DNA of 64,000 nt from Anaerolineaceae bacterium UBA6105 (GTDB taxonomy: Bacteria; Chloroflexota; Anaerolineae; Anaerolineales; Anaerolineaceae), in the NCBI GenBank assembly GCA_002423495.1, contig DIWN01000058.1:4080-68079 (forward strand), read 5' to 3'. The notes beneath the pieces are model-generated. The model ran no database searches, had not been told where the DNA came from, and was given only the letters and a program-made list of their open reading frames with translations. Numbering within the stretch: the stretch's first letter is position 1; each line of letters begins with the position of its first letter. Positions 2 to 29,173 of this stretch are shown one piece after another. A program made the position numbers and the translations under genes.

Positions 2-688
2 TCTTCAGTTTCGGTGCTGATCACCGGACCAACCGGCACAGGCAAGGAAGTGTTGGCACAATATATTCACCAGAACGGACCGCGTTCGGGCAAACCATTC
101 ATCGATATCAACTGCCCTGCTATTCAACCAACTATGTTTGAATCCGAGTTGTTCGGGCATGAAGCAGGTTCCTTTACCGGCGCGACCAGCAAACGCAACG
201 GTTTGATGGAAATCGCCGATGGCGGTATTCTCTTCCTCGATGAGATCTCCTCAATGCCGGTCGACCTCCAGGCAAAATTCTTACGTGCGCTTGAAGAACG
301 CGCTTTCAGGCGGGTTGGCGGATCGAACCTGATTCGCGTTGACGTTCAGGTGATCGCCGCTTCAAACCGCGACCTGAAGGAAATGATCGCAAAGCATGAG
401 TTCAGGGAAGACCTCTATTATCGTCTTAAGGTTGTCGACCTGGATTTGCCCTCATTGGCAGAACGCCGCCAGGATATCCCCGATCTGGTGGGTTATATGA
501 TCCGGAAGTTCAACAAACGCCTGGGCAATAACGTTCTGGATGTTTCGCCTGCCGCAATGCAAGCGCTGATCAACTATGATTGGCCGGGAAATATTCGGGA
601 ATTAAGCAATGCCATTCAACACGCGGTTCTTTTCTGCGACGAGGCCACAATTGACCTTAACCATTTGCCAAAAGACATCACCAAATAA
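2..688 (+). CDS. sigma-54-dependent enhancer-binding protein (NtrC-family AAA+ domain); 5' end cut by window edge; no C-terminal HTH
   Basis: Walker A GPTGTGKE, GAFTGA-loop variant GSFTGA, Walker B ILFLDEI, NIRELSN sensor-II region. The stop comes about 20 aa after the AAA+ lid. Confidence 0.85.
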   Translation, partial: SSVSVLITGPTGTGKEVLAQYIHQNGPRSGKPFIDINCPAIQPTMFESELFGHEAGSFTGATSKRNGLMEIADGGILFLDEISSMPVDLQAKFLRALEERAFRRVGGSNLIRVDVQVIAASNRDLKEMIAKHEFREDLYYRLKVVDLDLPSLAERRQDIPDLVGYMIRKFNKRLGNNVLDVSPAAMQALINYDWPGNIRELSNAIQHAVLFCDEATIDLNHLPKDITK

Positions 689-770: not shown

Positions 771-1103
771 ATGTTAATTAATGGAGATCAGGTCCTTTTA
801 ATTGTTTCGATAGTGCTTTTTGCACTGGGCTTTCTTTGTTTGATTTTGAGCATAGTCATCCTGGTCAAGCAGTCACTCGGTCGGGGTATTCAAAGTATCG
901 CAGAATCGACAACGATATTGGCTGAGAAAGGGATCACCGAAGGAGTATCGGGGCTGGTTGGAAACGCCTCTTTGCTCATCAGCTCCCTCAACGACCTCGC
1001 CAAATCCAACACTGGCATTGGCATATTCTTTGTCTTCCTGAGCCTGGTCCTGTTTGCCGGCGCTTATTATATGCTTAAACCATTCATTGGAGCCATGCCC
1101 TAA
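771..1103 (+). CDS. small membrane protein, two predicted TM helices, unknown function
   Basis: Hydrophobic runs VLLIVSIVLFALGFLCLILSIVILV and IGIFFVFLSLVLFAGAYYML; GGAGG upstream. Confidence 0.6.
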   Translation: MLINGDQVLLIVSIVLFALGFLCLILSIVILVKQSLGRGIQSIAESTTILAEKGITEGVSGLVGNASLLISSLNDLAKSNTGIGIFFVFLSLVLFAGAYYMLKPFIGAMP

Positions 1104-1123
1104 TTTTCCTTGAAGGAGTGACA

Positions 1124-4100
1124 ATGTCGATTGAGAGATTGCTAGATCAGATCCGGGTCCGTTTTGATTCGCAGACTGCCCGCGCGGTGGTCAGCGCTTT
1201 TCGCGCAGAATCACTCGCGTGGCATTATCTTGATACTACACCCGACCTAGAACAATGGCTGGACTTTGCTTCCGATGACCTCTCCCGCTGGCAGCCTGGC
1301 GTCCTTGCGCTTTTCTCTCTCGACCACTGCCTGCCCGAACAGGATCTGACCGATCTAGAAACCAAGCTCCCTGCCGAACTGAATGAACGGGTTGCGAATG
1401 TTTTCGAAATGACCCGCCTGACCGGTCTCGAACCGACCAGCCTGGCAGATGCCGCCCTGCTTGCGCTACACCTGCGCGAATTCCGCCGCGATGAAGGCTC
1501 ATGGAAAGGACTTTCCGAAAATTTGCTCTCGGGCAAGTGCCGGCTGCCGGTTTGGAAGACGGCTTTCGCGATCCTTCCCCAACTTGTGCCTGATTTTGAT
1601 GCCGCCATGGACAGCCTGGTAACAGAACTTTCCCCTCAGTATGCAGAGACACTTGGCAGCCTGATCGTTCACCAGGTGATAATCAATCCAACCGACGAAA
1701 ATATCCGCTATCAAACCTATCGCCGCAGACTTCAAAAAGCTCCCATCGACCTGCAAATTTCCTCCCTGCGCGCTATGCGCTCGGTTGAAGACGAATCGCT
1801 GATCAAACTCCTTGCGAACAGCTTTTTGGCCCAGGTTCAGTCAGCTAACGGAGATTTCAATAAAAATGCTGGTCAATCAACTGTCGAATCTTTCCGGCAG
1901 CAGGCTGTTCTCAGCCAGATTGCCGGGCAGCCCGCGCAAGCCTCCCGCGCGATTGACCATGCCTTCAATGCACTGAACCGTCAACAAGCCGAAATACTGC
2001 GTAATCTCGCTTTTGAACTCGAGACCTCCAGCCCCGAAGAAGCCCGCAAGACCTGGGAAGAAATTCTTCGGCTGCAGCCAGACAACACGACTTACAAAAA
2101 AGAATACGCGGAATTCCTGATCGCGAATGATGATCCTGATTATGGCTACGAAATTCTGCAGGAGATCCCGGATGATGCCACCAGGGCGCTTTACGCCCTG
2201 CGCTATCCAGTCACCAGCGCGACTGACCCCGAAGGCACGCATTCGCTGGATAAAGCCCTCGAAAAGACAACGCTCCAAACCAGCAACTCGCGCTTTTCCT
2301 CCGAGTCCGACAATCTCAAGGCTGCCCGCTACGCCTTTGAAAACAAGAAGTATCAAACTGCCAGCAATTTCATCCGCAAAGCGCTGGCTGAAAATCCCAA
2401 CAATCTGGAAGCCATCAAGCTTTCCGGTCTGATTGACCGCCACTTGGCAAACATCGACGATGCGATTGAATCCAGCGCGCTGCTGGCGGTTTTTGAGCCG
2501 CAAAATCAAACCAACAAAAAAGATCTGGCCTCGCTTTACCTCCAATCGCAGCAGCCGGAAAATGCCCTCAAGATCTACCAGGATCTTATCCATGCTTCAA
2601 GTGAACCTTCACGCACTGACCTGCTCAACTTCGCTGAAATTTCCATCAAAGCTTCCCAAGCTGAAAAAGCCATTCCAATCGCGCAGGCTTTCCTGAAAAA
2701 GGACGCGTTTGACGGCGAAGCTTTGGTTTTGCTCTGCAATGCCCTGATCGTCACAGGCAAACACGATGAAGCCGTTGCTGTGCTCGAAAAAGCTTCTGCT
2801 GTTGCCCCGGAAAAGCCTGCCAGCTGGCTCTCGCTGGCACGAATCTGGACCAGCCTGGGTCAGGAAGAAAAAGCCATGCAAGCCCTGCGCAAGGCCAAAG
2901 CGGCCTTGCCGGATGACCCCGCAATTCTAAGCGCTCTCGGATCGCTATATCTTGCGAATGATCAGCCAACTGAAGCCATCAGCGTTCTCAGGCAGGCTTT
3001 TCAACTTGATCCATCCAGCTCTTCTGTTAGAAAGTCACTGGCGCAAGCCTATCTGACCCACGGCTACATTGACGAAGCCTGGACGACCATCGCACCGCTT
3101 GAGGACGATTACACTTCCGATCCGGAGTTGGCATACGTCCTGGGGCAAACACTGGCTGCCATGGGAGACCTGAATGGCGCCCGACCTGTACTGCGTTTTG
3201 CCTGGCAGTCAAACCGCTCAGACAATGCCTTAAAATCCTACGCGGAACTTTTAATCAAAAGCTACAGCGAGGGCGTAAAACCTGGAACTCAGGAAGTAAA
3301 AGAGATGTCCCAGTTACTTTCCATCATGGAAGAACGCCAACAGGAACGGGATGGGCTCTTTGACATGCGCCTGCTGCAGGCTGATCTAAAAGCAAGCCTC
3401 GGCATGCACGACGCTGCCTACCAGGACTACCTCCAGCTCCTTGACTTCCCGGAGGCAAGGTCTCCACGTTCGTATCATCACCTCCAGTTCCAAACCGGTA
3501 AAACAGCGCTTGCACTGGGGCTGACGGATATCAGCCTGGCATCGCTGCAGGAAGCGGTTCTGATCGACCCTGACGACCTGCCCTCCCGACATACCCTCGC
3601 GAAAGCCTATATGGAAGCCAATCTGGAAGACGAGGGCTTTGCAACTGCCCGCTCCGCCATGCAGATCGCTCCAACAGAAATAGAAAATGTGCTTTGGTAC
3701 AGCGACTTCATGGGCGGGCACAACAACGCCCGCGAGGCCATCCAGGTCTTGAAGGACACCATCCACCTCCGTCCGGATGACAAAGCGCTCTACCTGACGC
3801 TTGCGCGCACTTACGTCAATCTGAATCAAATAGAAGAAACCAAAGAAACTCTCAACCAAATGCTCGCATTGGAAGACATCGAGACTGAAGAATATGTCAA
3901 TGTGGCCAATCTCTACCTCCACATGAATCAGCCCGATGAAGCTTCGCTCATCATTAAAAAAGCGATTTCAGATAATCCCTTCCCGGATTTTGCTGAAAGT
4001 TGCGATTTGATTTATTCTGTCCTCAAACTTGGTGACTCCGCAGCGGCTTTACAGTTGATCACTGATCTTGAGCCGGCGCTTCAGGCTAACCTTGCCTACC

Positions 4101-6463
4101 CATTGCTAAAATCCGACGTGCTCGCAGCCAACCAGCAGTTCCTGCCAGCCCTCGCAGTCCTCGAGGACATCCTGACCAAATTGGAATTTGCTCCGGAGAT
4201 GCTTGGGAGTGTGGCTGGGGATGCGGCTGAACAGAACCTTGACTATCCTGCTTACAATCGCGCCGGACTCTACTACCGGGCTGCCCAACTCGAACGAATG
4301 ATTGGCGATCTGCTGGTTTCTCAAAAACATGCGGCTCTGGCCTTGAATGCTGACCCAGGCAACGAGCCTGCATTCCTGCTCCAGCTCGAACTTGCCCTGG
4401 CGGGCAGCGATTCCGAAAGTTTGTCCAACGCGCTCGATTTCCTCAACACCCAGGAAACCCGAACTCACACAGCAACCTCAACAGCTAACATCCTTGCTCT
4501 TGACGCGATGCTGAGAGATGACCTGCCAAAAGCGCGCTTGCTTTGGGAGCACTTCCTTTCTGATAAAACACACTCACCCACTGCCCGGGCGCTTGAAAGC
4601 TTATTTGCCCATCAGAGCGGCAGCGCGGAATCAGCTGCAAATGTATTAACAGAAGCGGTAGAGATGGTCGATGAGCTTGAGATCTACCTGCGGAGCCAAT
4701 CTTTCGATATTGCGAGCCATTTTAATTGGATCTGGCACACGCTTGCTGTGGCTAAAGCTGCGTGGCAGCTATCCATTTGGGATATTGCTGACCGCTTGCT
4801 TGAAGCAGCGCTTTCTGTTGCCAAGATTAACCCCATCGCCAATAAGCTCCTGGCAGAATACCTGACAGACAAAACCAGGCAGACGAACAACGCGCACTTT
4901 TTGCGCCTGCTGAGCCATGCCCCAAAGGCTTTCGATCCGCAGCATTCAGATTTCGACATAATCGAAGAGCAAATCTCGATTGCTGGTCGCGCAATCGCCC
5001 CTTCAGAACTTCTGCCAACCCTGAAGATCAACCAGGCGCTCAAAAATGGGTATTGGTCAGAGGAAAACGATTTGCACAAACTCGTCACAAACGGCAAACA
5101 AGCTGCCCAGGCTCTTTCTGTGCTGGTGGACGATGCATCCATTGCGGACATCCTTGCAGGTTTCAGCAAAAACGCAGACGTCAACTTTCAGCAGGCAATC
5201 CAAAGCCTCCATTCAGACCCTGGCAAATCAGCAGCAATCGCCTTAAAGTTGCTTGAATTCCAGCCTGAAGACCCTGCGCTGCACGTTCTGCATGCCATTG
5301 CCTCCCGCAAAAACCCCCTCCTGGCAGCCGAATCGCTTGAGACTGCCCTCGCGATCTGGCCGGACGAACCGGATTGGCACGCACTGGCAGCGGCGATGTA
5401 CCAGGATGCCGGTCAATATCCCGAAGCAGCCAAACACCTCGAAGAAGCCATCCGGATTGCCCCAAAAGAGGCGCAATACTGGCAAATGCTCGGGGATGTG
5501 AAACTGCTCGAAAAAGATTATCACGCAGCCAAGGACTACTTTGGAAAGGCAACTGATCTCTTCCCTTCCAACCCGGAAGCACTGCACTCACTGGCCATCA
5601 TCAACCAACAGCTGGGCGAGCACCAGATCGCTATTCAGTGCCTTCGCAAAGCCAGCCAGCTCGACCCCGGTAACATTGTCTACGAAGAAGGCATTGCCCA
5701 GTCGCTGCTTGCTAGGCAGGATCTTCCTGAAGCCATTCAGCAGGCTGATGCCATTCTGAAAACGGATCCAAAGAACGAAAACGCCTGGCAAGTAAAGGTC
5801 AAGGCACTGCTCAAGAGCGGCAAACCAGAGGAAGCCCGGCAGGCAATCCATTTTGCCCTGGCGGTCGTCGAAAACCCTGTGCCCTTTGAGCTGCAGAAAA
5901 TTGACCTTGACAATGCCCGTAATCCCCACCAGGCAATGTTGTCATCACAAAAAATTGCTGAAAATTACCCCGAAAACGTGGCTGTTCTCAATAATCTCGC
6001 GCATAAACAAATCCAGATTGGCGAGATCGAGAAAGCGGAGCAGACCTTACAGCGCAGTTTGGTTCTGGACCAGTCCAACCCTGAAACGCTGGTTGCGCTT
6101 GGCAAGGTGGACCGCGTTCGCGGTAATCTGGACCAGGCACTCGCGCATCTCGCCCAGGCGATTGAACTGCAGCCAGGATTAATGGAAGCCTACCTCGAGA
6201 TGGGGCTCACCTACCAGGATCGCCGTGAGGTCAACAATGCCATCCAGACCTACCATAAAGCGATTGCCATGGTCAGCAACGATCCCCGCCCTTACCTGCA
6301 GGCTGCAGCTGCCTACAAGGAAAGCCGAGACTATCGCAATGCTGAATTTATGCTGCGCCAGGCTTCACAGCTTTCTCCATCAGACCAAAACATCCGCCGG
6401 CAGCTTGCCGCGGTGGTAGCACTCAATATTGTCAATAATCTCCAGGAGGCTCCTAAAAGATGA
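1124..6463 (+). CDS. giant tetratricopeptide-repeat (TPR) protein, ~1779 aa, function unknown
   Basis: Uninterrupted 5.3-kb ORF with many 34-aa TPR-pattern units, e.g. PEALHSLAIINQQLGEHQIAIQCLRKASQLDPGN. AAGGAG lies before ATG 1124 (the track start is GTG 1118). Confidence 0.85.
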   Translation: MSIERLLDQIRVRFDSQTARAVVSAFRAESLAWHYLDTTPDLEQWLDFASDDLSRWQPGVLALFSLDHCLPEQDLTDLETKLPAELNERVANVFEMTRLTGLEPTSLADAALLALHLREFRRDEGSWKGLSENLLSGKCRLPVWKTAFAILPQLVPDFDAAMDSLVTELSPQYAETLGSLIVHQVIINPTDENIRYQTYRRRLQKAPIDLQISSLRAMRSVEDESLIKLLANSFLAQVQSANGDFNKNAGQSTVESFRQQAVLSQIAGQPAQASRAIDHAFNALNRQQAEILRNLAFELETSSPEEARKTWEEILRLQPDNTTYKKEYAEFLIANDDPDYGYEILQEIPDDATRALYALRYPVTSATDPEGTHSLDKALEKTTLQTSNSRFSSESDNLKAARYAFENKKYQTASNFIRKALAENPNNLEAIKLSGLIDRHLANIDDAIESSALLAVFEPQNQTNKKDLASLYLQSQQPENALKIYQDLIHASSEPSRTDLLNFAEISIKASQAEKAIPIAQAFLKKDAFDGEALVLLCNALIVTGKHDEAVAVLEKASAVAPEKPASWLSLARIWTSLGQEEKAMQALRKAKAALPDDPAILSALGSLYLANDQPTEAISVLRQAFQLDPSSSSVRKSLAQAYLTHGYIDEAWTTIAPLEDDYTSDPELAYVLGQTLAAMGDLNGARPVLRFAWQSNRSDNALKSYAELLIKSYSEGVKPGTQEVKEMSQLLSIMEERQQERDGLFDMRLLQADLKASLGMHDAAYQDYLQLLDFPEARSPRSYHHLQFQTGKTALALGLTDISLASLQEAVLIDPDDLPSRHTLAKAYMEANLEDEGFATARSAMQIAPTEIENVLWYSDFMGGHNNAREAIQVLKDTIHLRPDDKALYLTLARTYVNLNQIEETKETLNQMLALEDIETEEYVNVANLYLHMNQPDEASLIIKKAISDNPFPDFAESCDLIYSVLKLGDSAAALQLITDLEPALQANLAYPLLKSDVLAANQQFLPALAVLEDILTKLEFAPEMLGSVAGDAAEQNLDYPAYNRAGLYYRAAQLERMIGDLLVSQKHAALALNADPGNEPAFLLQLELALAGSDSESLSNALDFLNTQETRTHTATSTANILALDAMLRDDLPKARLLWEHFLSDKTHSPTARALESLFAHQSGSAESAANVLTEAVEMVDELEIYLRSQSFDIASHFNWIWHTLAVAKAAWQLSIWDIADRLLEAALSVAKINPIANKLLAEYLTDKTRQTNNAHFLRLLSHAPKAFDPQHSDFDIIEEQISIAGRAIAPSELLPTLKINQALKNGYWSEENDLHKLVTNGKQAAQALSVLVDDASIADILAGFSKNADVNFQQAIQSLHSDPGKSAAIALKLLEFQPEDPALHVLHAIASRKNPLLAAESLETALAIWPDEPDWHALAAAMYQDAGQYPEAAKHLEEAIRIAPKEAQYWQMLGDVKLLEKDYHAAKDYFGKATDLFPSNPEALHSLAIINQQLGEHQIAIQCLRKASQLDPGNIVYEEGIAQSLLARQDLPEAIQQADAILKTDPKNENAWQVKVKALLKSGKPEEARQAIHFALAVVENPVPFELQKIDLDNARNPHQAMLSSQKIAENYPENVAVLNNLAHKQIQIGEIEKAEQTLQRSLVLDQSNPETLVALGKVDRVRGNLDQALAHLAQAIELQPGLMEAYLEMGLTYQDRREVNNAIQTYHKAIAMVSNDPRPYLQAAAAYKESRDYRNAEFMLRQASQLSPSDQNIRRQLAAVVALNIVNNLQEAPKR

Positions 6464-9228
6464 GACCTTACAATGCCCGCAAAAGTGACGAGGTGCTGGT
6501 TGTCAGGCGCGGAAAGTTCCTGACTTTGCTTCAGACCGCGCTGAGCAACCGCGAATTCCAGTTTGCCCGCCAGGCTTCTTTGATCTGGCTGGCGAGTTAC
6601 CCAGGTGATCTTCTGATCAACTTTATCTACGCTTCCGTGTTGGCAGAACTTGGCGACACCGAAATGGCGGGTAAAAACCTGGCCAAACTCTTGGCATATG
6701 ACCCCGAGTTCGTGGAAGCTGCCAGCCTGCTGGATCGTCTCACCGGGGAAAGCAATCGCGACACCCACGCCAACCTGTTGTATTTGCAGCGCGGCACCTC
6801 CAGCGCGAAATCTCCGACCGCCTGGCTCGATGGCTTAATCGCTGCCCGCAACGCGTGGGAGAGCGGTGATCTGACCGGCGCGGAAAAGGCCATTCTCGAG
6901 TCCCTGGCGCACAACCCCCGTTCACCTTTACCCGCGGCTTTCCACATGCAGATCATCCACAAAACCAACAATACCACCCTGCTCGAAACCCTCGCGGGCA
7001 TTTACAGCAGCCGCTGGCCGGATTGTGTCCAGATCAAGGTCCTCTCAGCCATTGCCGATATTCAGCAGGGCAACGACACTGCCGGCGTCGAAAAAATGCA
7101 CTGGTGTGCTGCGCATGACGTCAGCGGGCAGGTCATCAACCGCCTGCTGGGACCCAATCACACCTACAAGCCCCTCTGGCCAGAAGATCTCAAGGTCTAT
7201 CTCGATCTGCCCGTACCAGCTACTGTCGCAGCGGATTTGGGATGGAATGTGCTTTCAAACGCGGATTTTGTTGCCTCGGATAGCGCTGGTAAGGAAGCAA
7301 CCCCGCAAACAGCTGAAGAAATCATCAACGACGATCCCACCCTGGCGCTTCACTTGCCAGATTACCTGGTTGACGAATTGGCTGAGTCTGGGGATGTGGA
7401 TTATTCCGAAGTCCCAACCAGCTCCTTCTTCCTCCAGGACATTGCCACACCTCCTCTGCCGGACGGACACACAAATGAGGTTCCTGCCCTTCATTCCCCC
7501 GATTCGCGAAAGTCAGCACCCATTTCCGAGGAATCACAGGCTACTGTCCTCGCGATGACCGAAATTCAAACTGAGTTTGAAAAAGTGGCCCGAAAAATGA
7601 ACAAATCCGAGCTCATCAATACCGATGGGCGTTTTCCCAGTTACGTAATTCTGACTTCCCGCGGAAATCTTGAGAAAAAGTACGGCGCGAACACGGCTGA
7701 TGTCGTGATCGAATCGATGCGCAAATTGAGTCTTAACATCGTCGACCTGCCGGGCTGGAACAGTCTCGTTTACGTACCTGATGACGAAACCAGCGCCCGT
7801 GAACAGGCTCTGGACCCCATTCAAGCCAGTGATGCCTGGAAGATCAAACTTTCTCTCACGGATCTGGATGCCAAACTCGCCTCCCAAGGAGAGATGATTG
7901 GCGCGCTGCTGATCATTGGCGGCAATGACATCGTACCTTTCCACATGCTACCCAACCCAACCGATGATTCGGATGTGAATGTGCCTTCCGACAATCCCTA
8001 TGCCACTCTCGATGAAAATTACTTTATCCAGCAGTGGCCTGTTGGTCGCATCCCGGATGAAGCAGGCAGCGATGCCGGCTATCTGCTCGAGCAACTGCGT
8101 TTCCTGACCAAAGAGTACGAGCTGAAAGTCAAGTCAAAAAAGAGTATTTCAACCAATATTCTCGCAAATCTGCTCCGCAGCCTGGCAGCCCGTTTCCAGA
8201 GTTTTAACGTTCGGTTTCAGAAGCCCGACAACATCGGTTGCACAGCTGAAGTTTGGAAGCCGGCTTCATCTGAAATCTTCGCTGTTATTGACCATGCAGA
8301 CCGCCTGCTGAGTTCTCCGCCAACCAACAATAACAACCTCCTCAACGGGCAGATATCTGACCCCAAATTTGCCTACTTCAATCTGCACGGACTCAAGGAT
8401 TCCCCCGAGTGGTATGGTCAGCGCGACCTTGCCAGGCCTTCAACCGATCCGGAATATCCGGTCGCGATGGAGCCCACCAACTTTAATCCCCAGACTTCTT
8501 CCCCTGAAATTGTGCTGAGTGAGGCCTGTTACGGCGCCAACATCCTCGATAAAAAGGTTAACGAAGCCATTTCGCTCAACTTCCTTGCCAGCGGTACGCG
8601 GGCCTTTGTCGGCTCAACTTGCATCGCCTACGGCTCCGTGAGCAAAAGTCTGGTGGCCGCAGATTTACTCGCCTATCACTTCTGGACCCACGTCAAAGCC
8701 GAAGTTTCCGTTGGCTACGCCCTGATGCGCGCCAAACTTGCCCTGGCAAAGAAGATGACCGAAGATCAGGGCTACCTGGACGGCGAAGACCAGAAAACCA
8801 TTCTTTCCTTCGTGCTCTACGGCGACCCACTGGCTTCCAGCGTGAATATTAAGGAAGTCACAAAACCAGCCATCCGCCCAACCACCACCCCGGAGCTCAA
8901 GACCATCAGCGACTCACGCGAAGAATTGATCGTGGCCGCTAATGAAATGCCGGATGAGATCCTGGAAAAGGTAAGGAAGGTCATCAGCAGTTACCTGCCG
9001 GGTTTGGATGACGCCACTGTCTCGCTCAACCCGCAACTGACCAACTTCAAGCTTGATCCAGCCATGGTCCAGGCACACCGCCAGAAGTTTGATTATGTCA
9101 GCCAAAGCCAGCGCTATGTGGTGACGCTTAAAAAGAGCTACGAATACCGCCAGCACAACCACAACCACTTCGCTCGCGTGACCTTTAACCAAAAAGGCGA
9201 CATGTTGAAATTGAGTATGTCGCGCTAA
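6460..9228 (+). CDS. TPR-like N-terminal region fused to a clan CD cysteine-peptidase-like domain (peptidase C25/gingipain-like)
   Basis: ATGA overlap with the TPR gene. LLIIGGNDIVPF...SDNPYATLDEN...WPVGRIP, then YFNLHGL (His codon 8386-8388) and LSEACYGAN (Cys codon 8527-8529), resemble C25 family signatures recalled from memory. Confidence 0.6.
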   Translation: MRPYNARKSDEVLVVRRGKFLTLLQTALSNREFQFARQASLIWLASYPGDLLINFIYASVLAELGDTEMAGKNLAKLLAYDPEFVEAASLLDRLTGESNRDTHANLLYLQRGTSSAKSPTAWLDGLIAARNAWESGDLTGAEKAILESLAHNPRSPLPAAFHMQIIHKTNNTTLLETLAGIYSSRWPDCVQIKVLSAIADIQQGNDTAGVEKMHWCAAHDVSGQVINRLLGPNHTYKPLWPEDLKVYLDLPVPATVAADLGWNVLSNADFVASDSAGKEATPQTAEEIINDDPTLALHLPDYLVDELAESGDVDYSEVPTSSFFLQDIATPPLPDGHTNEVPALHSPDSRKSAPISEESQATVLAMTEIQTEFEKVARKMNKSELINTDGRFPSYVILTSRGNLEKKYGANTADVVIESMRKLSLNIVDLPGWNSLVYVPDDETSAREQALDPIQASDAWKIKLSLTDLDAKLASQGEMIGALLIIGGNDIVPFHMLPNPTDDSDVNVPSDNPYATLDENYFIQQWPVGRIPDEAGSDAGYLLEQLRFLTKEYELKVKSKKSISTNILANLLRSLAARFQSFNVRFQKPDNIGCTAEVWKPASSEIFAVIDHADRLLSSPPTNNNNLLNGQISDPKFAYFNLHGLKDSPEWYGQRDLARPSTDPEYPVAMEPTNFNPQTSSPEIVLSEACYGANILDKKVNEAISLNFLASGTRAFVGSTCIAYGSVSKSLVAADLLAYHFWTHVKAEVSVGYALMRAKLALAKKMTEDQGYLDGEDQKTILSFVLYGDPLASSVNIKEVTKPAIRPTTTPELKTISDSREELIVAANEMPDEILEKVRKVISSYLPGLDDATVSLNPQLTNFKLDPAMVQAHRQKFDYVSQSQRYVVTLKKSYEYRQHNHNHFARVTFNQKGDMLKLSMSR

Positions 9229-9251
9229 ACCATTTCTTAGAGAATTCTGTT

Positions 9252-9284
9252 CGGCGGAATGCGCTTTTTATGCGCATTCCGCCG
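9252..9284 (+). terminator. 13-bp stem hairpin after the TPR/C25-like operon
   Basis: CGGCGGAATGCGC-TTTTTAT-GCGCATTCCGCCG. There is no clear 3' U-tract. Confidence 0.5.
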
Positions 9285-9407
9285 TTAAGGTTGAGCTTGT
9301 CGGAATTGTCTGCTTCCACGATAAACGACTTCAAAAACTGAGCATTCCGCTTTTCAATTATCTATTTCTCCCTGCAAGTTTACTCGCCAACTAAAATGGA
9401 TTAAATT

Positions 9408-9436
9408 CTGACACAATCAGCAGTTTAAGTTATACT
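9408..9436 (+). promoter_or_regulatory. sigma-70-like promoter candidate upstream of aor
   Basis: CTGACA-N17-TATACT, about 90 nt before ATG 9527. Confidence 0.3.
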
Positions 9437-9526
9437 TATCGCCGTGAACTACCTAAACCACATCTAATTAAACATGTCAAAGATGTTCATCAATTTCTTC
9501 CGACTTGACCACATACAGGAGTAAGC

Positions 9527-11413
9527 ATGCACGGATATAGTGGAAAAATCCTTCATATTGACCTGAAAACGAAGAAAAATTGGGTCGAAACCAAACCAGA
9601 GGAATGGTACAAAATTTACATCGGTGGGGTCTCAATGGCTTCACGGCTCTTATGGGAAAATATCACTCCCGGCTGCGATCCACTCGACGACGGCAACCCC
9701 ATTTGCATTGCAAATGGCATCTTCACCGGCACACCGGTGCCTGTTGGCGGCAAATTTGGTCTGGCTTCCAAATCGCCCCTCACCGGCTTCATCGGCGATA
9801 GTCTTTCCGGCAGCTGGTTCTCTATCGCATTGAAACGCGCTGGCTGGGACGGGCTGGTGTTGCACAACAGTTGCGACAGCTGGACTCAGCTTTTTATTGA
9901 TGACGAGCGCGTGCAGTTCAACGATGCCACTTACCTGCTCGGCAAAGGCACCTACGAAACCGAAGAAGCCATTCGCGCAAAACTCGGCGATGAACAGATC
10001 CGTTCCTGCACCATCGGTCCTTGCGGCGAAAATCTGGTGCGTTTTGCCAACGTCACCAATGATGGCCGCCAGGCTGGTCGTACCGGTCATGGCATGATTT
10101 GGGGGCATAAAAAACTCAAGGCAGTTTCTGTGCGTGGTACTCGCGGCGTAACCGTCTACGATCCCAAAACGCTCAATCAACTTTCTTTTGATATTTCCAA
10201 GAGTGCGCAAGGCAAAGACACTGAAAAATACCGCATTTACGGTACCTCCACCGGTTTACTATCCACTAACAAAATGGGCGTCTTACCTACCCGCAATTTC
10301 CAGGAAGGCGTTTTTGAGGATGCCGAACTAGTCAGCGGTGAATACTTGGATAAGCATCACAAAGTCAAGGTGATTGCTTGTGCCCAGTGCCCCATTGCCT
10401 GTGAGCAAATGTCGTTGGTCAAGACCGGACCCTTTGCTGGCGCGATGACAGGTATTGAATACGAATGTCTCTTTGCCAACAGTTCCAACCTGGGCATCTC
10501 GGATATCCGATCCTCCATCAAGCTCATCACCCTTGCGGACCACGATGGGATGGATGCCATCACCATGGGCGGCACAATCGGATGGGCGATGGAATGCTAC
10601 GAGCGAGGCGTGCTGAAGAAGGAAGACTTTGCCAGCAAAGCTCACCCCGAAGGGCTCGAATTAAACTTCGGCAATGGCGAAGCCGCTGTTGCCCTGGCTG
10701 AAATGATCCGTGATCAGGAAGGGATCGGAAAAATTCTTGCCCAGGGAACCCGCATCGCCAGCAGAACTATTGACGAGGAACGCGGGACAGAGACATTCAA
10801 ATGGGCTATGAACACTAAAGGTCTTGAAGCCGCTGGTTACGACGCACGCGCGCTCAAGACGTTTGCCGTCGGGCTTGCCACTGGCACCCGCGGCGGCTGC
10901 CACAATCGCTCTGCTGCATACGATCCGGACATGAAAGGCGAAACCAACCGTCTGACTGTTGATGAAACCCGCGGTCGGGTTGCAGCAGACTCAGAAGAAT
11001 ATGCTGCCGTTTACGACACTCTGCCCCTGTGCAAGTTCATCCGGCGCTGTTTCACCGGTAAAGCCGACCGGGCTGGTGCATGGCCTGCCATCGCCAAACT
11101 GATCAATGCCACTACTGGCTGGGACTTTGATTACGATGCCGTTGATTTGATCGGTGTGCGCGCTTGCACTATCAAAAAAGCTTTCAACATTCGCGAAGGC
11201 TGGACTGAGAAAGATGATGACTTGCCCTGGCGATGGAAGCACGACCCCTTCACTAAAGGTCCCAGTGCAGGCGTATTTGTGACCGATGAAGAACTTGAAT
11301 ATATGAAAGACCTTTATTACAAGGCCAAAGGCTGGACCGAGGAAGGTATGATCCCCAAAGAACTATTGATCAAACTCGGCATGTCCGACGTGGCTGAAGA
11401 AATCGGAGTCTAA
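9527..11413 (+). CDS. aor: tungsten-type aldehyde:ferredoxin oxidoreductase family protein
   Basis: Full-length AOR-family similarity (KSPLTGF, CAQCPIAC cluster motif, GIEYE, TRGGCH); SD AGGAG upstream. Confidence 0.9.
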   Translation: MHGYSGKILHIDLKTKKNWVETKPEEWYKIYIGGVSMASRLLWENITPGCDPLDDGNPICIANGIFTGTPVPVGGKFGLASKSPLTGFIGDSLSGSWFSIALKRAGWDGLVLHNSCDSWTQLFIDDERVQFNDATYLLGKGTYETEEAIRAKLGDEQIRSCTIGPCGENLVRFANVTNDGRQAGRTGHGMIWGHKKLKAVSVRGTRGVTVYDPKTLNQLSFDISKSAQGKDTEKYRIYGTSTGLLSTNKMGVLPTRNFQEGVFEDAELVSGEYLDKHHKVKVIACAQCPIACEQMSLVKTGPFAGAMTGIEYECLFANSSNLGISDIRSSIKLITLADHDGMDAITMGGTIGWAMECYERGVLKKEDFASKAHPEGLELNFGNGEAAVALAEMIRDQEGIGKILAQGTRIASRTIDEERGTETFKWAMNTKGLEAAGYDARALKTFAVGLATGTRGGCHNRSAAYDPDMKGETNRLTVDETRGRVAADSEEYAAVYDTLPLCKFIRRCFTGKADRAGAWPAIAKLINATTGWDFDYDAVDLIGVRACTIKKAFNIREGWTEKDDDLPWRWKHDPFTKGPSAGVFVTDEELEYMKDLYYKAKGWTEEGMIPKELLIKLGMSDVAEEIGV

Positions 11414-11423
11414 CGAGGAGCTT

Positions 11424-11936
11424 ATGGCAACCAGTACATCAAAATATGCATATATCGATTGCGATCCCAACCTTTGCGTGGGCTGTCAACTGTGTGAATA
11501 CATTTGTGCGTTCACAAAAACTGGAGAATACAACTCTTATCGCAGCCGCATCCGCACTGTTCGCGTTGATGAAGTCCTCATCACCGCCATCGCCTGCCGC
11601 ACCTGCGAAAACGCTCCCTGCGTGATTGTCTGCCCGCGCGATGCCCTGACCCAGGACCCTGTCACCGGCATCATCGACGTCAACGCCAGCAAGTGTGATG
11701 GCTGCGCCTGGTGCATCGAAGCCTGCGACTTCGGCGCCATCTCCATCAACCCGCAAACCACTCTGGCAGAGATCTGCGACCAGTGCAGGGACGAACCAGA
11801 TGGACCTCAGTGTGTAAAGTGGTGCCCCAAAGAAGCGCTCACCCTGACCACACCCGACCAGCGTGCCCAGAAGACTCGCCGCAATCTGATTACCGAATCT
11901 TTAAATATGCCCCAGAAAGCAACGGATCCTAAATGA
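11424..11936 (+). CDS. 4Fe-4S multi-cluster ferredoxin-type subunit (AOR partner; BamC/AorA-like size)
   Basis: Four Cys clusters: CVGCQLCEYIC, CRTCENAPCVIVCP, CDGCAWCIEAC, CDQC...CVKWCP. Confidence 0.8.
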   Translation: MATSTSKYAYIDCDPNLCVGCQLCEYICAFTKTGEYNSYRSRIRTVRVDEVLITAIACRTCENAPCVIVCPRDALTQDPVTGIIDVNASKCDGCAWCIEACDFGAISINPQTTLAEICDQCRDEPDGPQCVKWCPKEALTLTTPDQRAQKTRRNLITESLNMPQKATDPK

Positions 11937-14470
11937 GTGAAGACCCCATCACCAAGAGCCATGCCGCGGACTTCCCTGAGGATGAGCCGCGCATTGGTGT
12001 TTACGTCTGCCATTGCGGCAGTAACATTGCCGGCGTCATTCCCCCGGAAGAAGTCGTGGATTTTGCCGGCAAACTTCCTGGCGTCGTTCGTTCGATCGAT
12101 ACCATGTATGCCTGTGCCGACAGCGGTCAGCGTCTCATCAAAGAAGACATTGCCAAGTACGGCCTGAATCGCGTTGTTGTTGCAGCTTGTTCAGTGCGCA
12201 TGCACGAACCGACTTTCCGAGGTTGCGTGGCTGAAGCTGGTATAAACCCATTCCTGATGGAAATGGCGAACATCCGCGAGCAGTGCACCTGGGCGCATGG
12301 ACACGACCGTGCAGGCGCGCTTGAAAAAGCCAAAGACCTCACCGCAGCGGCAGTTGCAAAAGCCACATTCCTGACCCCGCTGGATATGATCAAAGTGCCC
12401 GTCACCAAACGCGCCTTGGTCATCGGCGGAGGTGTGGCTGGCATCACCGCAGCTCTCGACCTAGCTGAACAGAACATTCCGGTCACCTTAGTAGAAAAAG
12501 AACCAACGATTGGAGGGGTCATGGCGCAACTTAACAAGACCTTTCCAACGATGGACTGCAGTATATGAATTCTTGCACCAAAAATGGTTGACGCGGCGCG
12601 TCAGCCCCTGATCGAAGTAAAGACCTTTACCGAAGTTGAAAAAGTCGAAGGATATGTCGGCAATTTTGTTGTGACCCTTAGGGAAAAAGCCAAGTATGTG
12701 CGTGCTGACCGCTGCAATGGCTGCGGCGCCTGCACCAAGGCTTGCCCAATTGAAATCCCCAACTACTTTGAAATGGACCTTGCTCCGCGCAAGGCCGCGT
12801 ATATCCCCATGAGCCAGGCAGTGCCTCTCATTTACAACATCGACATGGACGCCTGTATCCATTGCTATAAATGTGTGGAAGCCTGCGGAGCCCTCGAAGC
12901 AATTGACTTCAGCATGGAAGACAAACTGGTGGAGCAGGAAATAGGCGCGATCGTGGTTGCCACCGGCTTCGGTCACTTTGACCCAACCCCCATGACCGAA
13001 TATGGTTATGGTCGCTTCCCTAATGTAATTACCGCTATGGAGATGGAAAGGTTGAATAACTCAGCCGGACCTACCAACGGCACCCTGATCCGCCCAAGTG
13101 ATGGAAAAGAACCGAAACGGATTGCTATCATCAATTGCGTCGGTTCACGAGACAAGCGCTTCAACCCAGGCTGCTCAAACTTCTGCTGCATGTACGCGAT
13201 AAAAAACGCGCTGTTGCTCAAGCAAATGCATCCCGATAATGAGATTTCAATCTACTACATCGACATCCGCACTCCCTCCAAGGGTTACGAAGAATTCTAT
13301 GACCGGGCACGCGAATCCGGCATCCACTTTATCCAGGGACGCCCTGCTGAAATCACGGAAAATCCCGATTCACACCAGCTCTTCATTGCCTCGGAAGATA
13401 TTGCGCTCGGAAAGGTAATTGAACGCGAGTATGACATGGTCATGCTCAATCAAGCCGCCATTCCCCAACCCGACCAGAACCACATGAGCTCCGTGCTGAA
13501 CGTGGCTCAGTCCCCCGGCGGTTGGTTCATGGAATATCACCCCAAATTGCGCCCAATGGACAGCCCCACCGACGGTATATTCTTCGCCGGCGCTAACCTG
13601 GGTCCCAAAGATATCCCGGCCAGCGTCGCCCAGGGTTCCGCAGCTGCCTCGCGCGCTTCGCGCATTCTGCACTCCGACAGCTGGCAGATCGAACCTACCG
13701 TAGCTGTGGTCTGGCCGGATCGCTGCGTCAGCGCCGATGGTCAAGCTTGTGGCATTTGTGCCCGCGCCTGCCCCTATGGTGCCATCGATTACACCAAGGG
13801 TCTCGCGGCGGAAGTGATCACGGCCAAGTGCCACGGTTGTGGCGCCTGTGTTGGCGAATGTCCGCATAACGCAATCACCCAACTCCACTACACCGACGCC
13901 CAGGTACTGGCACAAATCCGTACCCTGTTGGCAACTGAACCGGAGAAGAAAATTCTTGCTTTCCGCTGCCAGTGGTGCTCCTATGGCGGCGCAGACCTTG
14001 CCGGTACTTCGCATTTTGAATATAGCGCCAATGAACGTGGATTGCGCGTGATGTGTTCAGCGCGTATGGATGCTGACCTGATCTACGAGGCTTACCGCCT
14101 CGGTGCTGGTGGGATCCTCTATTCGGGATGTCATCCGCAGGACTGCCACTACATCACCGGTCAGATTGTCGGCGCTAAACGTGCAGCGCGGCTTGAAAAA
14201 ATGTTTGAGCGCATGCAAATGAGCCCGGGTCGCTTCCGCGTAGAGTGGATCAGCGCGGCTGAAGGCGATAAATATGCCCGTGTCATCAACGAAATGCAAG
14301 CCGCATTGGATGAAATTCCCGAGGATGTCCTCAAGGCCGAAATCGAACGCCTGCGCCCTGAAATGGCTAAGAAACTTGCCAAGCTGGATGATATTCCTGG
14401 TGTAGCTCAAGCAATGGTACAAGTCGACTTCATCGTCGAAGAAATGATTGGCAAGGAGAAAGTCGCATGA
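11933..14470 (+). CDS. hdrA: HdrA-like FAD/Fe-S flavoprotein with fused C-terminal MvhD-like domain; selenocysteine at in-frame TGA 12566-12568
   Basis: ORFs 11933..12568 and 12584..14470 are in the same frame. Read-through gives FPTMDCSI-U-ILAPKMV, the conserved HdrA motif. GGGVAGITAALDLA is the FAD fold. C-terminal AFRCQWCSYGGADLAG...YSGCHPQDCHY is MvhD-like. Confidence 0.8.
12586..12606 (+). promoter_or_regulatory. candidate bacterial SECIS stem-loop
   Basis: GGUUGACGC-GGC-GCGUCAGCC (one G-U pair), starting 17 nt after the UGA. Confidence 0.5.
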
Positions 14471-15060
14471 GTGGTTTTGCTGACCCCTACGCCCTTTCCG
14501 AACGCGTAAAAGCTATTCCTGGAGGGGACATGCTGATGATGTGCTATTCGTGTGGCACCTGCACCAGCAAATGCATGATCCAGACCAAACTTGAGAGCAG
14601 TTACAACCCGCGGCGCCTGATCCGTGAAGCAGTTTTCAACATGGACGATGCCGCCTTTGCAGACAAAACCACCTGGCTTTGCACCGCCTGTGACCTCTGT
14701 TACCCCGCCTGCCCGCAAAAAATCCACATTTCCGGCGTTATCAACGCAGTCAAGGCGCTGGCAGTCGAAAGTGGAAAAAAGACGCCCTACCAGGTTGCCA
14801 AAGTGGATGAATCCACCTGTGTCGCCTGCGGTTTGTGCGAAAAGATCTGCCCCTACGAAGCGATCAGCCTGGTTGAAAAGCGGGTTCCCTTCCGCGGTAA
14901 CATCACGGTTGCCTCTGTAGACTCGGGTAAATGCATGGCTTGCGGGTTGTGCACTGCTGCCTGTCGTTCGACTTCCATTCGCCTGACTGAGGAATACAAT
15001 GATGTCGAATTGATCAATTCGCTCTGGTCCTGGTTAGAAACAGAAAGGGTATCCTCATGA
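14467..15060 (+). CDS. HdrC-like 2x[4Fe-4S] domain fused to a second 2x[4Fe-4S] ferredoxin domain
   Basis: CYSCGTCTSKC...CTACDLCYPACP, then CVACGLCEKICP...CMACGLCTAACR. ATGA overlap with hdrA. Confidence 0.7.
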   Translation: MSGFADPYALSERVKAIPGGDMLMMCYSCGTCTSKCMIQTKLESSYNPRRLIREAVFNMDDAAFADKTTWLCTACDLCYPACPQKIHISGVINAVKALAVESGKKTPYQVAKVDESTCVACGLCEKICPYEAISLVEKRVPFRGNITVASVDSGKCMACGLCTAACRSTSIRLTEEYNDVELINSLWSWLETERVSS

Positions 15061-15497
15061 GCGAGACCCCTAAATTAGTTCTTTTTCAATGCCAATGGTG
15101 CCTTTTTTCGCCAGATGACCAGCAATGGGTCGACCATCAACTGCCTGAAAACATCCATCTTATAAAAGTTCCCTGCACCGGCCGCATCAATCCGCTTTAT
15201 ATTCTGAATGCAGTTCAGGGTGGCGCGGATGGCGTCATGGTCAGCGGTTGTCTGCCCGAACAGTGCCATTTCAAAACTGGCAACATTGGAGCCCGCCGGC
15301 AGTTGGAAGAGTTTTCCGATTATCTTGATCACATCGGCTATGAACAGAACAGGATACGTTTCCTCTGGCTGGATCTACAGGACAGGGGAATCATCCAGAA
15401 GGAACTGGCTGCCTTTGAGGCGCAAATAAAAGCGCTCGGACCTGCCCACAACCTTGCCACGCGCGTCACCGAACCAGCTGGAGGTGCCAATGCATGA
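15057..15497 (+). CDS. MvhD/FlxD-like protein
   Basis: FQCQWC...VPCTGRINPLYILNAVQGGADGVMVSGCLPEQCHF. ATGA overlap upstream. Confidence 0.8.
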   Translation: MSETPKLVLFQCQWCLFSPDDQQWVDHQLPENIHLIKVPCTGRINPLYILNAVQGGADGVMVSGCLPEQCHFKTGNIGARRQLEEFSDYLDHIGYEQNRIRFLWLDLQDRGIIQKELAAFEAQIKALGPAHNLATRVTEPAGGANA

Positions 15498-16443: not shown

Positions 16444-16454
16444 GGAGAGCCAAC

Positions 16455-18324: not shown

Positions 18325-18331
18325 GAGAAAA

Positions 18332-23006: not shown

Positions 23007-23034
23007 CTCCCGTGCCCGGGAGACCCTGGCTGTT

Positions 23035-29025: not shown

Positions 29026-29028
29026 CTG

Positions 29029-29101
29029 GGTGCCTGGAGGGGGTCGAACCCTCAACATCTTCATCCACAGTGAAGTACTCTGCCATTGAGCTACAGGCAC
29101 C
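29029..29101 (-). tRNA. tRNA-His (anticodon GUG) with encoded G-1:C73, CCA not encoded
   Basis: The manual cloverleaf is G-GTGCCTG-TA-GCTC-AATGGCA-GAGT-A-CTTCA-CTGTGGA-TGAAG-ATGTT-GAGGG-TTCGACC-CCCTC-CAGGCAC-C. Confidence 0.9.
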
Positions 29102-29173
29102 ATGTAGGCGGCAATTCTAACATACCCCTTGCAGTCTCGCAAGCATAATTTTTGATGATATTTCGTATCAGCC

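Follow-up and report, generated by a model that had tools for sequence, protein, structure and literature searches.

A predicted sigma-54-dependent operon of Anaerolineae encoding a giant TPR protein and a putative intracellular clan-CD protease

Cysteine peptidases of family C25 are secreted or surface enzymes with a signal peptide and, in Bacteroidota, a prodomain and a T9SS C-terminal domain; clan CD also includes transpeptidases such as the C25-like PorU and GPI8 of family C13. Separase (family C50) combines a very large helical-repeat scaffold with a clan-CD protease and is used as a switch. The FlgS/FlgR pair of Helicobacter consists of a sensor kinase and a REC-AAA+ sigma-54 activator without a DNA-binding domain. 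Anaerolineae, which are filamentous and mostly uncultured, abound in digesters, sediments and wastewater; to our knowledge almost nothing is known about regulation in them. The only Chloroflexi member listed with sigma-54 in a 2011 survey was Herpetosiphon. Another sigma-54 activator without a DNA-binding domain is CtcC of Chlamydia (PMC7482065). In the type III-E CRISPR "Craspase", the TPR-CHAT protein Csx29 fuses TPRs to a caspase-like clan-CD protease that is silent until a signal arrives (PMC9729208, PMC9935389).

We analyzed a 64,000-nt stretch of Anaerolineaceae DNA (the window), in which three co-directional genes follow a -24/-12 promoter at positions 717–732; all features below lie on the forward strand unless stated otherwise. 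They encode a 110-aa protein with two TM segments (771–1103), a soluble TPR giant (1124–6463) and a soluble 922-aa protein (6460–9228), in which a TPR-like N-domain and a disordered linker precede a gingipain-fold cysteine protease domain and a C-terminal alpha/beta domain. This arrangement had been proposed in a first-pass annotation and was confirmed, including the 4-nt ATGA overlap of the two large genes (6460–6463). The ORF list offers two starts for the giant (1118/1124 to 6463). GTG 1118 falls within the Shine-Dalgarno (SD) sequence, and ATG 1124 lies 5 nt 3' of its GGAG, so the giant has the 1779 aa first assigned to it. The three-gene operon described there stands, but the unit is larger and also contains rpoN, a PAS kinase and an activator lacking a DNA-binding domain. 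We favor, with a probability of about 0.55, the reading that the three genes are the output of a self-contained sigma-54 module, which would act as a signal-gated switch for regulated proteolysis inside the cell and may amplify itself.

The promoter (TGGCATAGTAGTTGCA) consists of TGGCAT (717–722), five nucleotides and TTGCA (728–732), an exact fit to TGGCAY-N5-TTGCW with the 10-nt spacing between GG (718–719) and GC (730–731). It is the sole match in 64 kb. One strict match in a window of this size is not significant by itself: 0.40 matches are expected by chance, and 31 of 100 shuffles contained at least one. The promoter is instead supported because it is conserved among related loci. A -24/-12 element was found between the activator stop codon and the small ORF in all 68 loci with enough upstream sequence (the informative loci). 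The strict pattern was present in 60 of these, the remaining eight fit GGYA-N7-TTGCA, and the element was kept across lineages at only 42% protein identity. Other strict matches in the related loci were within long ORFs, with the exception of an intergenic one in locus L005, and were rejected as chance. A second, relaxed match in the window (23002–23016, minus strand) lies in an intergenic gap shortly upstream of the gene for a secreted Sortilin/BNR-like protein. It was not found upstream of the orthologue in locus L093 and is probably due to chance or lineage-specific.

A conserved, covarying hairpin (735–768) separates the promoter from the first gene. Its 5' arm (ATAACCTCCGAT, 735–746) holds an anti-SD and its 3' arm (ATCGGAGGTTAT, 757–768) the SD GGAGG (760–764), followed by a T-rich tail and then ATG 771. 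The folding energy in the window is -16.7 kcal/mol (z -6.4), the mean z over 29 lineages is -4.6, and compensatory pair changes support the structure. An Rfam search over the window returned a tRNA only, with no RNA family at this hairpin. Transcription is predicted to start at about 743, from the canonical 12-nt distance to the -12 C; the 5' arm begins just 4 nt past this C and is mostly upstream of the predicted start. We infer that the hairpin may be a terminator or an SD-sequestering insulator against read-through from the rpoN, kinase and activator genes, a suggestion that depends on the assumed canonical 12 nt. A start site within a terminator/anti-SD hairpin would be a compact route to strict dependence of the operon on one promoter.

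The 3' part of the activator gene is found at 2–688 (a partial ORF). It encodes the AAA+ domain and lid, with a GSFTGA loop motif (GAFTGA in locus L001) and a Sigma54_activat match at E 6e-64 in the Pfam scan. The ORF ends directly after the lid, so that a DNA-binding HTH is absent from the activator. At full length, orthologues measure 390–395 aa and have the composition REC+AAA+, and the kinase is a soluble PAS-HisKA-HATPase protein without a TM segment. Wherever the sequence reaches that far, rpoN is directly upstream (L001–L004, L006, L029, L032, L039, L077, L078, L082, L087–L092). It is itself preceded, at 33–48 nt, by a -24/-12 element in seven of seven lineages; the sigma-54 reading of this element is not exclusive, because in several lineages it overlaps a good sigma-70-type -10. 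A second activator gene was not found in 1.52 Mb of Anaerolineae DNA, a biased and redundant sample. The module resembles CtcB/CtcC and FlgS/FlgR in pairing a kinase with a REC-AAA+ activator that has no DNA-binding domain and would act from solution. In contrast to both, rpoN, kinase and activator are here contiguous with the target operon throughout the whole class, and the target genes are unrelated to those in Chlamydia and Helicobacter.

Conservation of gene order, named as a check on the earlier proposal, extends over the whole module: rpoN, soluble PAS kinase, REC-AAA+ activator without a DNA-binding domain, sigma-54 promoter, 2-TM gene, TPR giant and protease. Kinase, activator, small gene, TPR gene (where present) and protease occurred in that order in 68 of 68 informative loci. 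At least 515 matches were found in GTDB contigs with one genome per species, and 560 clusters at 50% identity were obtained at E ≤ 1e-30. The six-gene module, with the three genes as its output half, is found in roughly 500 or more species genomes of Anaerolineae. Its surroundings are housekeeping genes and not an island, and the module appears to be vertically inherited and part of the core genome in Anaerolineae. Literature searches (sigma-54/RpoN with Anaerolineae, Chloroflexi or Chloroflexota; C25 with Anaerolineae) gave no description of it. The module is thus uncharacterised so far as these searches show, in agreement with the earlier remark that no characterised system has this composition.

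This pattern of inheritance bears on the idea of an anti-phage or abortive-infection system like TPR-CHAT (Craspase) or SAVED-CHAT, in which infection unleashes the protease on host or effector proteins, and makes it very improbable. Defence islands are usually patchy and mobile, whereas the gene order and chromosomal neighbors (rpoN upstream, housekeeping genes around) are the same here in hundreds of species. Control is transcriptional, by a two-component system and sigma-54, and there is no CRISPR effector, cyclic-oligonucleotide sensor or nuclease partner. No defence-system signature was found for the module: PADLOC-DB 2.0 had no match for the small protein or the protease and gave only weak, TPR-driven matches for the giant. 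Among the points that do speak for defence, the giant's TPR region weakly matches the PADLOC candidate PDC-M71B, one distant homologue adjoins a CHAT+TPR gene, and the combination of TPR and clan-CD protease in the 922-aa protein is the architecture of Csx29 (PMC9729208). The second-best structural match of the protease, SAVED-CHAT 8tl0, points the same way, but a scan with the Pfam CHAT HMM (PF12770) gave no match, and the resemblance to CHAT is structural only. If our preferred reading of regulated proteolysis is right, the "TPR plus caspase-fold" logic of separase and Craspase would extend to a vertically inherited, non-defence context. The analogy with separase is one of logic only; scaffold and protease are here separate, translationally coupled polypeptides.

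The N-terminal domain of the 922-aa protein (residues 1–260; 6460–7239) was modeled as helical repeats with pLDDT 84–94 and matches profiles of consensus TPR proteins (E 5e-6), while Pfam TPR matches are sub-threshold only. The catalytic domain covers residues ~390–800 (7627–8859) and the C-terminal alpha/beta domain residues 829–922 (8944–9225). Two motifs in the catalytic domain, AYFNLH643G and IVLSEAC690, each place the candidate residue (His643, codon 8386–8388; Cys690, codon 8527–8529) after a hydrophobic strand, as His-Gly and Ala-Cys and in the His-before-Cys order of clan CD. In the model, both residues are just past strands (637–641 and 684–687). The H, G, A and C of these motifs are 100% conserved in 139 sequences, namely the window protein and 138 cluster representatives only 33–46% identical to it. 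The loop PFHxLPNPTDDSDxxVPSDNPY (residues 493–514, in the catalytic domain) is also invariant, as are H495, D503, D505, D511, R530 and D735.

AF2 models were of moderate quality, with a mean pLDDT of 69 for the full-length protein. Because the full-length Foldseek search was swamped by TPR proteins (SAVED-CHAT ranked first), residues 385–922 were modeled alone, which gave a cleaner ranking at a lower mean pLDDT (60). The best PDB matches of this model were gingipain K chains (4rbm, E 2.5e-7; 6i9a, E 3.3e-6; TM-scores 0.38–0.44), followed by SAVED-CHAT 8tl0 (E 6.5e-4). A structure search had been suggested as a check on the clan-CD claim, and the models do give the C-terminal region a caspase/gingipain-type alpha/beta clan-CD fold. 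Together with the conserved motifs, this makes the 922-aa protein a putative clan-CD cysteine protease with a His/Cys dyad.

The description of this protein as a C25-like peptidase held for the clan-CD fold, with gingipain K nearest, and is softer for the C25 label. In our own hmmscan, PF01364 (C25) had no match at E ≤ 10 in the window protein or its relatives P0076, P0108 and P0120, and Pfam and NCBIfam scans of the same four proteins found no protease family even at this threshold. Precomputed PF01364 matches are unmarked (E ≤ 1e-5) only in other subclades (P0054, P0108, P0116, P0094) and "faint" in P0017, the closest relative looked up. Searches of PDB sequences with phmmer and profiles gave TPR matches for the N-domain only, and no solved protease was linked to the catalytic domain. 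MAG pipelines name the family "hypothetical" or "C25 peptidase".

Like the gingipains and family C25 (Kgp, RgpB), the 922-aa protein has the His-Gly and Ala-Cys motifs after hydrophobic strands, His before Cys, and a large two-lobed alpha/beta catalytic region followed by an extra C-terminal domain; some of its relatives carry the precomputed C25 matches. Unlike them, it lacks a signal peptide, a prodomain and a C-terminal domain for secretion, and it carries the TPR-like N-domain and an approximately 95-residue linker. HMMER detects no similarity between its sequence and those of gingipains, and it comes from a Chloroflexota host. It contains neither a hydrophobic N-terminus nor a TM segment (maximum 19-residue hydropathy 1.53), and the giant has no hydrophobic segment either. 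Both large proteins are read as cytoplasmic because signal peptides and TM segments are absent from them. That the protein is an ordinary C25 peptidase secreted for nutrition, as MAG annotations in proteolytic Anaerolineae are usually read, is therefore scarcely credible, even with gingipain K as the best structural match and with the NCBI name "C25 family cysteine peptidase" on P0070, P0076 and P0108. The TPR-like N-domain also argues against it, as does the tight coupling of the protein to the cytoplasmic giant and to sigma-54 regulators dedicated to this operon. The label "C25 peptidase" invites this wrong reading of the family as a secreted digestive enzyme. On the preferred reading, a gingipain-like clan-CD protease would be placed in the cytoplasm under tight transcriptional gating.

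The giant was correctly described as a TPR protein: TPR families cover residues of about 300–930 and 1390–1779, with TPR_19 at E 8e-64 and many other TPR matches. The TPR signal is weak or absent in residues 930–1390, no known domain was found in residues 1–300, and a PDB sequence search with its first 370 aa and its middle 500 aa gave no matches. The giant's best NCBIfam match is PrsT (TIGR02917, 272 bits), and the activator also matches PrsR (TIGR02915, 253 bits). These matches raise the possibility of a module for the assembly and regulation of envelope or exopolysaccharide, of the PrsK/PrsR/PrsT (PEP-CTERM) type, with the giant as main actor and the protease as accessory. In the Prs trio, too, a histidine kinase and a sigma-54 activator go together with a large TPR protein, and sigma-54 as "controller of the bacterial exterior" is a general theme (PMC3162934). 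We consider an envelope role quite improbable, however. The two scores fall well short of the curated cut-offs of 312 and 503 bits, and for the activator PrsR is outscored by other sigma-54 activator models. The giant is twice as long as its Prs counterpart and has no lipoprotein signal, no exosortase, PEP-CTERM protein or glycosyltransferase was found, neither large protein has an export signal, and the genes downstream of the operon are redox enzymes and not conserved.

In one lineage (L029 and L032), the giant gene is missing from the operon and the protease is kept. The giant thus appears to be dispensable in this lineage and not an obligatory partner. This weighs against another reading, in which the clan-CD domain would not be a degradative or regulatory protease with many targets. 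It would instead serve solely as a maturase or transpeptidase, in the manner of PorU, GPI8 and the legumain ligases, and help build a membrane-associated structure by processing or attaching one operon partner, either the giant or the 2-TM protein. The ATGA translational coupling does suggest stoichiometric co-production with the giant, and a conserved KTISDS motif (8899–8916), in a disordered linker just before the C-terminal domain, could be a self-processing site. Its aspartate, however, is only 75% conserved in distant relatives, and we regard a maturase role as unlikely.

The first gene product was rightly called a 2-TM protein. It has two hydrophobic segments, at residues of about 8–33 and 82–103, and a conserved loop some 45 residues long. 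Orthologues were found by protein search in the same clade only, the Anaerolineae, and no Pfam or NCBIfam family matched. A holin-like reading was dropped in view of the long conserved loop and the uncharged C-terminus. JGI names on relatives, "Na+-transporting decarboxylase gamma subunit" among them, seem to be mis-annotations.

Under the preferred reading of a proteolytic switch, the PAS kinase would sense an intracellular cue and phosphorylate the activator. With no DNA-binding domain of its own, the activator would act from solution and target sigma-54 holoenzyme bound at the two promoters of the module. At the rpoN promoter, activation would amplify the regulators in a positive feedback; at 717–732, it would start transcription from about 743, inside the hairpin 5' arm. 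In read-through transcripts from the regulator genes, the hairpin would sequester the SD and probably terminate transcription, so that only sigma-54-initiated mRNA would be extended and translated. The 2-TM protein may use its conserved loop, on the cytoplasmic side, to tether the soluble TPR proteins to the membrane. Substrates may be selected or gated by TPR surfaces of the giant and the protease N-domain, and the gingipain-fold domain would carry out limited proteolysis of cytoplasmic targets and so change the state of the cell like a switch. Possible biological roles lie in the stress response, dormancy or cell fate of the filamentous hosts. A bolder and doubtful extension is that sigma-54 in Anaerolineae is single-purpose and not global: encoded beside its own cytoplasmic sensor kinase and an activator without a DNA-binding domain, it would serve essentially two promoters, its own, with positive feedback and bistability, and the hairpin-insulated one, and would commit a cell within a multicellular filament to a membrane-tethered, TPR-gated gingipain-fold protease as a caspase-like cell-fate or dormancy switch. 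Should the operon prove to be the only target, this would be an unusually minimal sigma-54 regulon. The module offers a clearly delimited sigma-54 circuit for Anaerolineae, with input and output both testable.

At the end of the operon, the 13-bp hairpin noted earlier is present at 9252–9284, where CGGCGGAATGCGC (9252–9264) and GCGCATTCCGCCG (9272–9284) form 13 perfect pairs around a 7-nt loop; the extended fold reaches -29 kcal/mol. No T-run follows it, and the hairpin is a copy of a REP-like repeated palindrome, GGCGGARYGCGC, and not a classical T-tailed terminator. Close relatives carry 5–9 copies of this palindrome downstream of the protease gene, and in locus L088 the copies flank an IS200/IS605-type Y1 transposase gene. 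In most lineages, strong hairpins follow the protease stop codon and mark the operon end.

The output operon in the window consists of three co-directional open reading frames on the + strand (771..1103, 110 aa; 1118/1124..6463; and 6460..9228, 922 aa). The second of these, which encodes a giant TPR protein, was assigned a start at ATG 1124 and a product of 1779 aa because this codon has a GGAG 5 nt before it and the alternative GTG 1118 falls inside that Shine-Dalgarno sequence. This is the length given in the first-pass annotation, and the ATGA overlap of the two large genes reported there likewise agrees with the ORF coordinates. The 110-aa protein has two hydrophobic segments, and our sequence analysis found no hydrophobic segment and no signal-peptide-like N-terminus in the giant or the protease. 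Several orthologues of this protein (P0283, P0302, P0318, P0332, P0338, and P0340) are labelled 'Na+-transporting methylmalonyl-CoA/oxaloacetate decarboxylase gamma subunit' by JGI. This name is probably a mis-annotation, since the orthologues are invariably positioned in this operon. Upstream, ORF 2..688 encodes the AAA+ and lid portion of a sigma-54 activator (Sigma54_activat, E 6e-64) with a GSFTGA loop; because the ORF ends right after the lid, the window activator lacks an HTH.

Judged by the gene order of its relatives, the operon is only half of a conserved unit. In the related loci L001 and L004 (the latter from Brevefilum), whose proteases are 61% and 42% identical to the window protein, the order is rpoN, a PAS-HisKA-HATPase kinase, a REC-AAA+ activator of about 391 aa with no HTH, the 110-aa gene, the giant, and the protease. 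No TM segments were found in the kinase. When one genome for each GTDB species was scanned, at least 515 loci encoding protease relatives were found, and the best 80 of those were all from Anaerolineae (Anaerolineaceae, Brevefilum, Leptolinea, and Mesolinea). Using tblastn, we found the order kinase, activator, small gene, (giant), and protease kept in all 68 loci whose upstream sequence is long enough to tell, as expected if synteny is conserved, and wherever the sequence reaches, rpoN lies immediately upstream as the first gene of the unit, preceded by housekeeping genes in divergent orientation. The giant is absent from L029 and L032 (both 8308-11617), where the gene for a 961-aa protease comes straight after the small gene in a five-gene variant; it is about 1.5 kb shorter in L039 and about 1.3 kb longer in L016. 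Downstream genes vary by clade, with an aldehyde:ferredoxin oxidoreductase/Hdr-like cluster in the window and several relatives and a cobalt ABC transporter in Brevefilum. The window cluster (9527-19315) encodes aldehyde:ferredoxin oxidoreductase, an NAD-binding subunit, and Fe-S, FAD, and FlpD (MvhD/HdrA-like) proteins, a composition suggestive of an electron-bifurcating redox module. The remaining window genes are housekeeping genes (IleRS, LspA, RluD, HisRS, and tRNA-His), and the tRNA-His gene is directly 3' of the histidyl-tRNA synthetase gene (29028-30436, - strand).

The -24/-12 promoter that the first-pass annotation had placed before the operon is supported by this comparison. An element of this type lies past the activator stop codon and ahead of the small gene in every informative locus (68/68), with the strict pattern in 60 and GGYA-N7-TTGCA in the remaining 8. 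Alignment of 29 distinct leaders left GG, TTGC, and ATG as the sole invariant blocks. The window element, TGGCAT-N5-TTGCA at 717-732, is the sole exact match to TGGCAY-N5-TTGCW in 64 kb, a uniqueness that is not significant alone because 31 of 100 sequence shuffles gave at least one exact match. A relaxed match, GGCACGGGAGTTGCA (window 23002-23016, - strand), falls within the 50-nt gap that precedes a Sortilin/BNR-repeat gene (ATG 22982) whose product is secreted and has an N-terminal hydrophobic anchor. It could be a second sigma-54 promoter; no such element precedes the orthologue in L093 (2946-3000).

A further promoter element precedes rpoN itself. In each of the seven lineages in which the upstream region was examined, a GG-N10-GC element ending in TTGCA lies 33-48 nt before the start codon (L089 2328-2343, L091 2327-2342, L090 2278-2293, L092 2281-2296, L029 3639-3654, L032 3629-3644, and L039 95-110), for example TGGCATGCATCTTGCA in L090 and, in the window organism's close relative L089, TGGTATAATTCTTGCA. 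In several lineages it overlaps a sigma-70-type or extended -10 sequence (TGgTATAAT, or TTTACA-N17-TATACT). This element, which is located upstream of the window, may form a dual promoter that combines basal sigma-A expression with sigma-54 autoactivation. Dedication of sigma-54 to this operon would be consistent with three observations: the operon and rpoN are physically linked, the activator lacks a DNA-binding domain in the manner of the activator CtcC (PMC7482065), and no second activator gene was found in 1.52 Mb of Anaerolineae DNA, which is weak evidence because this sample is biased towards the cluster neighbourhood.

In most of the 29 lineages examined, the stretch from the -12 element to the small gene's ATG can fold into a hairpin (735-768 in the window, -16.7 kcal/mol, z -6.4; mean z over the 29 lineages, -4.6). 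Its 3' arm is the Shine-Dalgarno sequence (GGAGG) and its 5' arm is the anti-Shine-Dalgarno (CCTCC). The pairs flanking this core covary, with the first outer pair changing from A-T to G-C or T-A and the first inner pair from T-A to G-C or A-T, and a T-rich run often lies 3' of the hairpin. In most lineages the 5' arm starts only 2-8 nt past the -12 C. Transcription from sigma-54 promoters canonically starts 12 nt after the -12 C, and the predicted start in the window is at about 743. Transcripts initiated by sigma-54 should therefore miss most of the 5' arm, which lies before this start, and the full hairpin would occur only in read-through transcripts from the regulator genes. We infer that it terminates and/or translationally silences such read-through, and the output operon would therefore be strictly dependent on sigma-54 initiation.

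Among the proteins of the operon, the giant has TPR family matches at residues about 300-930 and 1390-1779; Pfam gave no match for residues 1-300 or about 930-1390, and PDB sequence searches gave none for residues 1-370 or 901-1400. The 922-aa protein had no match in Pfam or NCBIfam scans or against PDB sequences. Its more than 200 close relatives all come from Anaerolineaceae or Chloroflexi MAGs. Precomputed annotation labels them PF01364 (Peptidase_C25), and NCBI gives a few of them the name 'C25 family cysteine peptidase'. In the full-length AF2 model (mean pLDDT 69), residues 1-260 form a helical-repeat N-domain predicted with confidence. A disordered linker (263-356) leads from it to an alpha/beta domain (about 390-800), and a second linker leads on to a small alpha/beta domain at the C-terminus (829-922). 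A Foldseek search with this full model returned SAVED-CHAT (8tl0) as the top match and TPR proteins next. When residues 385-922 were modelled alone, gingipain K was the top match (4rbm, E 2.5e-7; 6i9a, E 3.3e-6, TM 0.38-0.44) and SAVED-CHAT was second, with no further significant match. A clan-CD signature is found in AYFNL-His643-Gly and IVLSE-Ala-Cys690, each preceded by a predicted strand. When the window protein is aligned with 138 cluster representatives (33-46% identity to it), H643, G644, A689, and C690 show 100% conservation, as do H495, D503, D505, D511, R530, and D735. The gingipain K match and the invariant His/Cys motifs uphold the initial proposal of a clan-CD fold in the C-terminal domain, and we conclude that the protein, whose fold is gingipain-like, is a putatively active cysteine peptidase of clan CD and at best a distant, borderline member of family C25. 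One might speculate that the 493-514 loop, with its many invariant aspartates, could confer gingipain-like Arg/Lys specificity.

We read the protease as cytoplasmic because an export signal is absent, and the same absence contradicts its being a secreted digestive C25 peptidase. A role as a dedicated maturase or transpeptidase is less probable than the limited proteolysis proposed below. The linker that connects the catalytic domain to the C-terminal one, predicted to be disordered, contains a KTISDS motif (window 8899-8916, residues 814-819). Close relatives keep this motif almost unchanged, and its Asp is 75% conserved in distant ones; the protein could be processed there, or the motif could act as a pseudo-substrate. 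The combination of TPR repeats and a protease also agrees with the TPR-CHAT architecture (PMC9729208), and a defence system in that style would fit, but the core-genome, vertically inherited context and the lack of PADLOC matches for the small protein and the protease argue against it. A distant 1018-aa protease homologue, P0237 (JGI 3300056388), adjoins a convergent 867-aa CHAT+TPR protein, and this neighbourhood therefore has two different TPR/clan-CD proteases side by side.

The sequence comparisons directly support a conserved order of the genes, the two promoter elements, and an activator without a DNA-binding domain, together with a soluble kinase, giant, and protease, a gingipain-like fold, and an invariant dyad. 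In the mechanism that we propose on this basis, with a probability only a little above one half (about 0.55), a cytoplasmic signal would pass through the PAS kinase to the activator, causing both sigma-54 promoters to fire; the rpoN promoter would provide feedback, and the output promoter would be insulated by the hairpin. The TPR proteins would be tethered by the 2-TM protein, in which the conserved loop probably faces the cytoplasm because K/R residues follow TM1, and TPR surfaces would pick or gate substrates for limited proteolysis. For the rival reading as a PrsK/R/T-like envelope module, sub-threshold NCBIfam matches are the sole hint. We found no published description of the module in the literature, in line with the first-pass statement that no characterised system of this composition is known, and a 2011 survey recorded sigma-54 among Chloroflexi only for Herpetosiphon. 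The types of parts are all known; their combination and regulatory wiring are not.

In most lineages a strong hairpin, differing in sequence from one to the next, lies at the 3' end of the operon, no more than about 60 nt past the stop codon of the protease gene. In the window, the 13-bp hairpin noted from the sequence at the outset is indeed perfect (9252-9284, after the stop at 9228), and no T-run follows it. It represents a single copy of the repeated palindrome GGCGGARYGCGC, of which a degenerate half-copy occurs at 9340-9351. Further copies were found downstream of the same gene in L005 (5 copies, region 11653-12567), L013 (5 copies, 11628-11830), and L088 (9 copies, 12780-13825). Because the palindrome is multiplied in these close relatives, we interpret the window hairpin as a REP-like element in terminator position. 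In L088 an IS200/IS605-type Y1 transposase gene (13247-13762) has copies of the palindrome on both sides, which resembles the organisation of REP/RAYT systems.
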